From a virus (taxonomy: Duplodnaviria > Heunggongvirae > Uroviricota > Caudoviricetes), in IMG/VR virus record IMGVR_UViG_2802429220_000008, positions 1-18,046 of that record: DNA of 18,046 nt. One strand, given 5' to 3'. The translations under genes and the position numbers were made by a program. Shown piece after piece: positions 6,912 to 14,397 of the stretch. Every line of letters begins with the position of its first letter. Position 1 is the stretch's first letter. A model generated the notes under the pieces. That model was not told the origin of the DNA. It was given only the letters and a program-made list of their open reading frames with translations, and made no database searches.

Positions 6912-7496
6912 ATGATCACTTTTACAAAAGAGCAGTTAATCAGTCATGTTAGTGAAAATGTAAAGGCGATGAAATTTGCAGTAAAACAGACAGTATTCAA
7001 AAATTCTCTCGAGGCAATTGAGTTGGATTTAGCACTGGCCCTTGTTGCTCAGGCTTCGCTGGAAGCAGAGCCCGTGCTTTATATGAATCGATTTACCGGA
7101 AAGACATTCTCACTGGAAGAGCAACCCGGTGCTGATAAGGAACCGGAAATATACGTGCCGCTATATGCTGCCCCGCCAGACAGCGCCGCCATGCTTCAGG
7201 CTGGAAACTTTCGGGAAAATAAGGGTTCGTCAACCAATAATTTTCGGGAAATCTCGGAAACGTCAACCAACTATCCGGTAACTCCGGATGGTTGGATAAG
7301 CTGTAGTGAGCGAATGCCGGATGATGGTCAGCACGTAATTATTTTATGTGATGGCGCATTCGTTCTTTATGCGCAATATCGAGACGGTGAGTTTTTTGAT
7401 GTAGTCCGTAATGGTGATGAATTTTTCGAAACACAGAGCCGCAATGTAACCGACTGGATGCCGCTACCAGAACCGCCGCAGGAGGTGCGCCAATGA
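6912..7496 (+). CDS. DUF551-domain phage protein
   Basis: C-terminal DGWISCSERMPDDGQHVIILCDG...WMPLPEPP is DUF551-like; start placed at ATG 6912 after AAGGAG (track start 6852 is GTG without RBS). Confidence 0.65.
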   Translation: MITFTKEQLISHVSENVKAMKFAVKQTVFKNSLEAIELDLALALVAQASLEAEPVLYMNRFTGKTFSLEEQPGADKEPEIYVPLYAAPPDSAAMLQAGNFRENKGSSTNNFREISETSTNYPVTPDGWISCSERMPDDGQHVIILCDGAFVLYAQYRDGEFFDVVRNGDEFFETQSRNVTDWMPLPEPPQEVRQ

Positions 7497-7576
7497 TCTG
7501 GCCTGAAGCCTTTGCAATTACAGGCGTTGCTATAGCTATTGATTTTTTAGTATATGTTATTTGTCGGTGGGGGTAA
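7493..7576 (+). CDS. Small hydrophobic peptide (27 aa)
   Basis: MIWPEAFAITGVAIAIDFLVYVICRWG; GGAGGTG 5 nt upstream; ATGA overlap with the DUF551 gene stop. Below the track size cut-off. Confidence 0.45.
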   Translation: MIWPEAFAITGVAIAIDFLVYVICRWG

Positions 7577-7611: not shown

Positions 7612-7716
7612 ATGTCGGATGATATTTCACTGGCAATGGAAGGTGCTCTGGCTGTTATTGCTGTTGTGGGCGTTTACTGCCTGGTTGTGTTTTTGATGGA
7701 TCGACTAGGGAACTGA
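7612..7716 (+). CDS. Small hydrophobic membrane peptide (34 aa)
   Basis: MSDDISLAMEGALAVIAVVGVYCLVVFLMDRLGN; AAGGAGGG RBS 5 nt upstream. Below the track size cut-off. Confidence 0.5.
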   Translation: MSDDISLAMEGALAVIAVVGVYCLVVFLMDRLGN

Positions 7717-7758
7717 ATTCATTACGATATGGGAATTCCCATATCGGGTAAAAACGGT

Positions 7759-7786
7759 TTGCGGTAAAGCGAGAGTTAAGTAGAAT
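7759..7786 (+). promoter_or_regulatory. Candidate promoter of the hok/mok mRNA
   Basis: -35 TTGCGG (7759-7764), 16-bp spacer, -10 TAGAAT (7781-7786); predicted 5' leader begins with gcgggtgcttgagg, complementary to the 3' end of the transcript. Confidence 0.45.
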
Positions 7787-7849
7787 TGCTGCGGGTGCTT
7801 GAGGCTGTCTGCCTCGGGCATGCCACCGTAAGGCAGACAGAGAAAAGCC

Positions 7850-7915
7850 CCAGTTAACATTACGCGTCCTGCAAGACGCCTAACATTAATCTGAGGCCAA
7901 TTTCATGCTAGACAT
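7850..7915 (-). ncRNA. Predicted Sok-like antisense RNA region (boundaries uncertain)
   Basis: Inferred from hok-family organisation; candidate minus-strand promoter -35 TTGCCT (7948..7943), 17-bp spacer, -10 TAACCT (7925..7920) would give an RNA antisense to the mok start; no clean terminator found. Confidence 0.25.
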
Positions 7916-8117
7916 ATGTAGGTTAGCCTCTTACGCGCCGAAAGGCAAGGAGAAGCAGGCTATGAAGCAGCAAAAGGCGATGTTAATCGCCCTGATCGTC
8001 ATCTGTATCACCGTCATAGTGACGGCACTGGTAACGAGGAAAGACCTCTGCGAGGTACGAATCCGAACCGGCCAGACGGAGGTCGCTGTCTTCACAGCTT
8101 ACGAACCTGAGGAGTAA
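7905..8117 (+). CDS. Mok-like reading frame (in-frame leader encompassing hok)
   Basis: 70-aa ORF MLDICRLASYAPKGKEKQAMKQQK... with GAGG 8 nt upstream; same frame as hok, resembling the arrangement remembered for MokC/HokC. Confidence 0.5.
   Translation: MLDICRLASYAPKGKEKQAMKQQKAMLIALIVICITVIVTALVTRKDLCEVRIRTGQTEVAVFTAYEPEE
7962..8117 (+). CDS. hok: Hok/Gef-family type I toxin (HokD/RelF-like, 51 aa)
   Basis: MKQQKAMLIALIVICITVIVTALVTRKDLCEVRIRTGQTEVAVFTAYEPEE: single TM helix plus conserved TRKDLCE...REVA.F.AYE motif. Confidence 0.9.
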   Translation: MKQQKAMLIALIVICITVIVTALVTRKDLCEVRIRTGQTEVAVFTAYEPEE

Positions 8118-8185
8118 GAGACCTGGCGAGGGAGAAATCCCTCGCCACCTCTGATGAATCAGGCATCCTCAACGCACCCGCACTT

Positions 8186-8212
8186 AACCCGCTTCGGCGG
8201 GTTTTGTTTTTT
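8186..8212 (+). terminator. Intrinsic terminator of the hok transcript
   Basis: Stem aacccgc/gcgggtt, loop ttcg, followed by ttgtttttt; sits directly after the fbi-like element at 8167-8181. Confidence 0.7.
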
Positions 8213-8284
8213 CCTGGCATTCTGGTTTACAATTCGCACGCCAGCCTGAACAACTGGCACCTGCTGCGCCAGCAGAGACAACCG

Positions 8285-12331: not shown

Positions 12332-12407
12332 GGCCCTTTAGCTCAGTGGTGAGAGCGAGCGACTCATAATCGCCAGGTCGCTGGTTCAAATCCAGCAAGG
12401 GCCACCA
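12332..12407 (+). tRNA. tRNA with CAU anticodon (Met, or Ile2 if lysidine-modified)
   Basis: Manual fold: acceptor ggccctt/aagggcc, D-arm gctc..gagc, anticodon loop cuCAUaa, T-arm gctgg-ttcaaat-ccagc, 3' ACCA. Confidence 0.85.
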
Positions 12408-12487: not shown

Positions 12488-12564
12488 GCGTTGTTAGCTC
12501 AGCCGGACAGAGCAATTGCCTTCTAAGCAATCGGTCACTGGTTCGAATCCAGTACAACGCGCCA
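12488..12564 (+). tRNA. tRNA-Arg (anticodon UCU)
   Basis: Manual fold: acceptor gcgttgt/acaacgc, D-arm gctc..gagc, anticodon stem attgc/gcaat with loop cuUCUaa, T-arm cactg-gttcgaat-ccagt, GCCA end. Confidence 0.85.
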
Positions 12565-13922: not shown

Positions 13923-14156
13923 CCGGGTATCAGTCATGCCCTGAAAATTTTAAATGTCTCACAATTCAGACGGTTGACAGTTGTCTGGTTTGCGGGGAGT
14001 TTGTTAAAAGAAACTGGCATGGTGAATCCCCCTGAGCGGAGGGGCATATCAGCGCAGGTGTTTCTACTCTATCCTTTCTGTGCGGGTTCAGGTGCTGATA
14101 CTGAACTCACCGGGAGGCACCCGGCACCATGCAAGAAAAAGAATGTGCATGCAAAC

Positions 14157-14184
14157 ATGCCCCTCTCCGGAGGGGCATTTTTAT
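14157..14184 (+). terminator. Intrinsic terminator
   Basis: Perfect 9-bp stem atgcccctc/gaggggcat, loop tccg, then ttttat. Confidence 0.6.
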
Positions 14185-14397
14185 GGGTAAAAAATGCCCG
14201 AATGGGTTCGGGCAATAGCATGAGATACTGATATTGTTGTGTTGTTATCGTGTGGATTTTAACCAGGGTTTATCAGGCTGCGCAACTGCGTGGCCTTTTT
14301 TCATTTCTTGGGCTGTAGTCCCCGTGTGTCATTCAGGCTTCCGGACTACAGCCCACTCCATATCTGATTTAATACACTATCCCGGCCGGGAGGAATA

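Follow-up and report, generated by a model that had tools for sequence, protein, structure and literature searches.

The region at about 7750-8215 of the DNA analyzed here (18,046 nt, referred to in full as the window) very probably holds a complete hok/mok/sok type I toxin–antitoxin cassette. As far as can be judged from the sequence, it belongs to the hokD/hokW lineage, is a moron, and would have a mechanism like that of plasmid R1. An earlier sequence-only reading had proposed a complete hok/mok-type toxin locus, intact rather than decayed, and both parts of this proposal were supported, as every named element is present and the sequence-testable features of the family were all found. The cassette is of a common, known type that has been annotated and published before. 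Reading raw sequence was enough to recover the entire regulatory architecture of hok, a result of little weight beyond correct annotation.

E. coli SCPM-O-B-9504 contains a stretch with 100% identity to the locus region, annotated as hokD by RefSeq. This copy lies in a Rac/Qin-like lambdoid prophage and is flanked by a DUF551 gene on one side and by a DUF968 gene, RusA and the Q antiterminator on the other. At the sequence level, the carrier of the cassette in the window is a Rac/Qin-like lambdoid E. coli prophage, with the cassette positioned between the replication genes and the nin/Q region. A search with the whole window showed that this prophage is mosaic: the best genome reached 81% coverage at 95% identity, and a near-complete match was absent. 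Because of this mosaicism, no single reference prophage name can be assigned. Downstream of the Q antiterminator, two tRNA genes are found together with the sRNA STnc100 and the anti-GcvB sRNA AgvB, an arrangement usual for the late region of EHEC-type lambdoid prophages. No stx-sized ORF, however, is present.

Homology to copies in other genomic contexts begins at 7746-7779 and stops at 8200-8215, and these bounds define the cassette as a module of about 450 bp that moves between phage backbones. The left end had originally been placed at 7725, which is too far out. The segment 7725-7746 is a perfect 22-bp palindrome, CGATATGGGAATTCCCATATCG, lying directly left of the cassette boundary and common only to copies in the same phage context. 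It belongs to the flanking phage DNA and was rejected as a part of the locus, since homology in other contexts starts to its right. With no T-run behind it, the palindrome is not a terminator; it could be a binding site for a protein or a scar left by recombination. Both boundaries of the mobile cassette coincide with the arms of a 9-nt imperfect inverted repeat, GGTAAAAAC (7747-7755) and GTTTTTTCC (8206-8214). This may well be due to chance, given that the repeat is short and that its right arm is the T-run of the terminator.

The toxin ORF matches Pfam PF01848 HOK_GEF with E = 2.3e-23 and 81.9 bits (cutoff 22), and PHROG 251 ‘MokW-like host killing’, category moron, with 2.8e-33. The protein is 98% identical to HokD of K-12, from which it differs by a single residue (Ile16 here for Leu). 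The in-frame mok-like leader of the earlier reading was also borne out, as the 70-aa mok ORF is open, contains the Hok ORF in frame, and is kept in homologues. The GAGG upstream of it corresponds to the mok Shine-Dalgarno (SD) sequence of R1 (PMC9841398), and by analogy hok is predicted to be translated through mok by translational coupling. In the RefSeq annotation of the locus, the Hok CDS alone is marked, while mok and Sok are omitted. The positions of all features are collected in Table 1.

Table 1. Features of the hok/mok/sok cassette and of the late region of the window.
Feature	Position	Strand	Details
hok promoter -10, TAGAAT	7781-7786	+	corresponds base for base to TATGAT in the alignment with the R1-type hok promoter
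tac	7793-7804	+	translational activator element, GGGUGCUUGAGG; forms the 5' end of hok mRNA and is paired with fbi in the MFE fold
Metastable 5' hairpin of nascent transcript	7793-7824	+	tac paired with the sequence directly downstream, GCCUCGGGCAUGCC
5' stem-loop	7805-7840	+	10-bp perfect stem, in closed and open folds
ucb (anti-SD), AAGCCCC	7845-7851	+	upstream complementary box; pairs with the mok SD region (full-length RNA) or tac (truncated RNA)
Sok/sokT hairpin	~7853-7890
Predicted Sok antisense RNA	7913→7843	-	~71 nt; coordinates transferred from the 933W sokW annotation
mok Shine-Dalgarno, GAGG	7893-7896	+	8 nt upstream of mok AUG; invariant in 24 loci
mok leader ORF	7905-8117	+	70 codons, mok AUG 7905, in frame with hok, common stop codon
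sok promoter	7920-7948	-	-35 TTGCCT (7948-7943), 17-nt spacer, -10 TAACCT (7925-7920); lies inside mok
dcb, GCCUC	7926-7930	+	downstream complementary box; partner of the mok SD region, GAGGC, when the RNA is in the open form; Rfam consensus, fold of 7793-7935
hok Shine-Dalgarno, AAGGAG	7947-7952	+
hok toxin ORF	7962-8117	+	51 aa, hok AUG 7962; ORF list, Pfam, PHROG, RefSeq hokD
GC-rich 3' stem-loop	8124-8147	+	just past the hok stop codon; folds
fbi	8167-8179	+	fold-back inhibitory element, CCUCAACGCACCC; complementary to tac with one bulged C
Intrinsic terminator	8186-8212	+	stem 8186-8203, then T-run; terminator scan and fold; homology ends at 8200-8215
tRNA/sRNA features downstream of Q	12332-12404, 12488-12561, 13988-14188 (+), 14250-14189 (-)

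Two tiny hydrophobic ORFs lie directly upstream of hok on the same strand (+). The ORF at 7493-7576 encodes 27 aa and overlaps the stop codon of the DUF551 gene, while the ORF at 7612-7716 encodes 34 aa, has a strong AAGGAGG SD, and corresponds to the RefSeq hypothetical protein WP_001278450.1. Neither gave a match in the PHROG and Pfam searches, and both may be small membrane proteins. Within the toxin gene itself, the Tyr47 codon TAC (8100-8103) stands in a TACG context, which is the context recognised by TadA.

The earlier reading had also proposed an upstream promoter, of which the -10 part is convincing and the -35 part is weak. The -10 hexamer is conserved, and a TAnnnT hexamer is found at a constant distance from the GGG start in diverse homologues. 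The -35 element is either TTGCGG (7759-7764, 16-nt spacer) or TTTGCG (7758-7763, 17-nt spacer), and a simple sigma-70 consensus scan, in which the hok and sok promoters both fell short of the threshold, called nothing there. The placement of both promoters relied instead on conservation and on alignment with the R1-type and 933W loci. The hok transcript most likely starts at G7793, judging from two alignments: position 1 of the Rfam model RF01794 falls at 7793, and the 5' end of the window locus aligns with the 5' end of the R1-type hok mRNA, GGCGCUUGAGG.

This start position bears on the complementarity that had been noticed between the two ends of the locus, gcgggtgcttgagg (7791-7804) and cctcaacgcacccgc (8167-8181). 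The two segments do form 14 pairs with one bulged C (8173), but transcription starting at G7793 would probably leave the two outermost pairs, 7791/8181 and 7792/8180, out of the RNA. Among the 24 homologues, the former is unpaired in 10 and the latter in 16. The core of the complementary segments, CCTCAA-N(0,1)-GCACCC, is found at these two sites and nowhere else in the 18-kb window, with 0.01 expected from 200 shuffles. Two further elements were recovered just as they had been described, namely the 10-bp perfect stem-loop, in which ctgtctgcct (7805-7814) pairs with aggcagacag (7831-7840), and the terminator, whose stem at 8186-8203 and T-run were found by the scan. By analogy with R1, the 3' stem-loop past the hok stop codon is presumed to be the 3' end protector of the processed (truncated) mRNA. 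The R1 element definitions, the metastable structure and the role of the 3' hairpin are taken from published work (PMC9841398).

The Rfam model RF01794 matches 7793-7967 over its full length (model positions 1-157) with 114 bits. It is named ‘sok’ and lies on the sense strand, where its consensus extends from the 5' end of the hok mRNA to the hok AUG. What the model recognises is the open-form hok leader, comprising the tac/ucb stem, the Sok-target hairpin and the stem between the mok SD and dcb, and not the antisense Sok. An annotation pipeline that relies on RF01794 would consequently put ‘sok’ on the wrong strand and with the wrong extent.

The antisense RNA predicted from the 933W annotation folds into a long hairpin with a single-stranded 5' tail of 15 nt and a terminal UUUU (-31.3 kcal/mol, z = -5.41), and its 5' tail covers the mok AUG. 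The hexamers of the predicted sok promoter are identical to those of 933W sokW, and the pattern TTGCCT/TTGACC, 17-nt spacer, TAnnnT is kept in 22 of the 24 diverse loci. The -10 hexamer TAACCT matches the consensus at just three of six positions. For sokW, transcription from its own promoter has been reported, and a -10 mutation unmasks toxicity (PMC8621323).

The Sok/sokT hairpin at 7853-7890 bears a GC-rich extension of about 20 nt, CGCGTCCTGCAAGACGC. This extension is present in 10 of the 24 aligned loci (hokD/hokW type, Kluyvera, Pseudocitrobacter and others), with compensatory changes inside it, and is missing in hokC-type, Photorhabdus and Pantoea loci. The predicted 5' recognition tail of Sok (7899-7913) differs from that of 933W sokW at 6 of 15 nt, and no part of the leader varies more among homologues than the mok-start region. 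A divergent tail may insulate co-resident copies from cross-talk. Going further, co-resident hokD/hokW cassettes could have diversified the Sok tail and its mok-start target such that each antitoxin protects its own copy and the loss or induction of each prophage is sensed individually; at its position just upstream of nin/Q, the cassette would act as an induction-timed lysis helper, as for Sp5. We put this forward tentatively, as a possibility that we do not favor.

The regulatory structure was compared across homologous loci. A Mok/Hok protein search in one genome per species and in IMG/VR gave 140 loci, and 24 non-redundant full-length loci from about nine genera were aligned (Escherichia, Photorhabdus, Pantoea, Erwinia, Kluyvera, Citrobacter, Pseudocitrobacter, Kalamiella and a further enterobacterium). 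The elements themselves were placed by aligning the locus with an R1-type IncF hok/sok locus, phage 933W and K-12 hokD, and the fold elements were kept rather than disrupted in the 24 loci. When the full-length structure was imposed on the 24 loci, 85.9% of the cells were paired, as opposed to 38-47% with the partners slid, and the number of pairs with double changes was 39 compared with 11-23. In the tac/fbi helix, 87% of the cells were paired and four pairs were compensatory. One of these involves U7796 in tac, which forms U-A in 17 sequences, C-G in 5 and U-G in 2, and three further tac/fbi pairs have double changes. U7796 is bulged out of the tac/ucb stem, and this accounts for its being the tac position that is free to vary. 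The helices of the 5' stem-loop and of the 3' stem-loop at 8124-8147 each contain five pairs with compensatory changes.

The pairings of the open form are essentially invariant. All seven tac/ucb pairs can form in 23 to 24 of the 24 loci, and the five pairs between the mok SD region and dcb are kept in 22 to 24 of them, so that covariation speaks neither for nor against these stems. Their invariance is consistent with the double duty of the bases involved. In the outer half of tac/fbi, 4 to 6 sequences appeared unpaired. This is an artefact of the alignment, in which the fixed columns are partly out of register because some lineages are without the bulged C. The energies calculated for each locus separately confirm the tac/fbi pairing despite the mis-registered columns, with a median tac/3'-UTR duplex energy of -21.1 kcal/mol compared with -12.4 kcal/mol when the 3' UTR was shuffled.

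Folding alone reproduced the three-state pathway of R1, from a metastable 5' hairpin via a closed full-length form to an open truncated form, although these states are model predictions. For the nascent state, the first 36 nt (7793-7828) folded with -21.2 kcal/mol (z = -3.57) and tac paired downstream, which matches the metastable structure reported for R1 (PMC9841398). The closed state is the MFE fold of 7791-8212 (-184.2 kcal/mol, z = -8.95), in which the 5' and 3' ends are paired through tac/fbi and ucb pairs with the mok SD region. Once the 3' end of the RNA was removed, the MFE fold switched to the tac/ucb stem. The 143-nt leader folds exactly as in the Rfam consensus: dcb is paired with the mok SD region, and the mok start region lies in the loop. 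In the 358-nt truncated fold, the mok SD region goes into a different long-range pairing and not into the SD/dcb hairpin. The 3' hairpin at 8124-8147 and a removable tail made up of fbi and the terminator are both visible in the fold.

The mechanism we propose is modeled on the R1 paradigm, for which the sequence requirements were checked in the window. A weak promoter would give a stable hok mRNA starting at G7793, and in the nascent RNA tac would be locked in the metastable 5' hairpin. When the 3' end has been transcribed, tac would pair with fbi and ucb would mask the mok SD, leaving a closed full-length RNA accessible neither to translation nor to Sok. The fbi element would then be lost as the 3' end is slowly trimmed back to the 8124-8147 hairpin, after which tac could pair with ucb, and the hairpin between the mok SD region and dcb would present the mok start region. 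As long as the short-lived Sok is available, it would bind the mok start region, and the resulting duplex would be destroyed. After Sok has decayed, mok would be translated, and the coupled hok ORF would yield the 51-aa membrane toxin.

The toxicity of Hok, the expression of Sok and the 3' processing at this locus are assumed by analogy with hokW-sokW of the Sakai prophage Sp5, which was described as a functional type I toxin–antitoxin system in 2021 (PMC8621323). In Sp5, HokW arrests growth and sokW neutralises HokW. Treatment with mitomycin C leads to the loss of sokW and to a RecA-dependent build-up of HokW in the inner membrane, and deletion of hokW-sokW halves phage release (PMC8621323). 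The role of the cassette in the window is likely linked to the prophage. The cassette could serve addiction or, as shown for hokW-sokW, aid lysis once the prophage is induced; phage exclusion is a further candidate role.

An intact cassette sequence is no guarantee of activity. The cassette might be physiologically silent, like chromosomal hokA, hokB and hokC, releasing too little Hok for killing or for stabilising the prophage, and persist only by hitch-hiking on phage DNA. The weak -35 element and a promoter that the scan left uncalled would fit such silence, as would the work of Pedersen and Gerdes, in which, as summarized in a preprint, chromosomal hok loci failed in post-segregational killing and rifampicin activation (bioRxiv 10.1101/2025.08.07.668861). 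However, the regulatory helices are conserved with compensatory changes across genera, which argues for selection on regulation. In addition, hokW-sokW of Sp5 makes HokW after induction and doubles phage release (PMC8621323), the 933W locus is 91% identical to that of the window, and the HokD coding sequence is toxic on expression (bioRxiv 10.1101/2025.08.07.668861). We therefore consider a silent cassette improbable.

The RefSeq label hokD, which is the name of a truncated K-12 gene, might instead suggest a decayed remnant like K-12 hokD (relF), i.e., a toxin ORF stripped of its own control elements. However, tac, ucb, the mok SD, the mok start, the sok promoter and the Sok hairpin are all present in the window and all absent from K-12 hokD, and the Rfam leader model matches end to end. 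Decay was rejected on these grounds; the sequence refutes it, and we give it almost no credence. An intact, regulated cassette of the hokD/hokW lineage remains the reading that we prefer.

Such cassettes are widespread. The locus query matched 4,723 of 5,426 complete E. coli genomes, with a median of 2 places per genome and a maximum of 10, as well as 110 phage records and 861 plasmid records. At least 115 of the 135 copies assessed combine an intact Hok ORF with the tac motif and a strong tac/3'-UTR duplex, and by these sequence features intact copies are the norm. A recent survey likewise describes hok as enriched in prophages and the HokD coding sequence as toxic when expressed (bioRxiv 10.1101/2025.08.07.668861). 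Loci with 89-94% nucleotide identity were also seen in records labelled Actinobacillus phage vB_Apl-pPE4 (PP818812.1), Veillonella parvula MAG, Xanthomonas pisi and Acinetobacter idrijaensis. Contamination with E. coli or mislabelling, and not a true host, is the most likely origin of these loci.

Among known systems, the locus can be compared with hokW/mokW/sokW of Stx2 phage 933W, all three of which are annotated in its GenBank record. The two are 91% identical over 441 nt and have the in-frame mok/hok layout and the position of Sok in common. They differ in location, as the 933W cassette lies near the genome end by tail-fibre-side genes while that of the window lies between the DUF551 and DUF968 genes, and in the C-terminus of Hok, which reads FTAYEPEE in the window and FVDYESEK in 933W. 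In addition, 933W is without the terminator sequence found at 8186-8203 of the window.

All named regulatory elements of hok/sok from plasmid R1 (IncF parB) are present in the window and in the same order: promoter -10, tac, 5' stem, ucb, Sok hairpin, mok SD, dcb, hok SD, 3' hairpin, fbi and terminator. At the nucleotide level, however, the two are barely alignable outside the conserved boxes, and megablast with the R1-type sequence misses the lineage of the window. HokW, a close relative of the window toxin, is 44% identical to R1 Hok (PMC8621323). The mok AUG is in another frame than the hok AUG in the R1-type sequence but in frame with it here, and the Sok/sokT hairpin of the window carries its GC-rich extension of about 20 nt relative to R1. 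The carrier also differs, being a prophage for the window cassette and a plasmid for R1.

The hokC (gef)/mokC/sokC locus resembles the window in its in-frame mok/hok layout and its conserved tac, ucb, dcb and fbi boxes. It differs in having about 75% nucleotide identity to the window, a short Sok hairpin, and a fixed chromosomal site that is not in a phage.

K-12 hokD (relF) in the cryptic prophage Qin has the same 3' UTR as the window, including the 3' hairpin, fbi and the terminator, and a DUF968 (ydfU-type) gene follows downstream in both. However, the shared sequence begins only at the hok SD, and upstream of it relBE sequence takes the place of everything that the window has kept. As K-12 hokD retains nothing upstream of the hok SD, the window carries the intact, unrearranged form, in agreement with the description of hokD as inactivated by rearrangement (PMC12214031). 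The common prophage ‘hokD’ is thus the intact form of the gene that is truncated in K-12.
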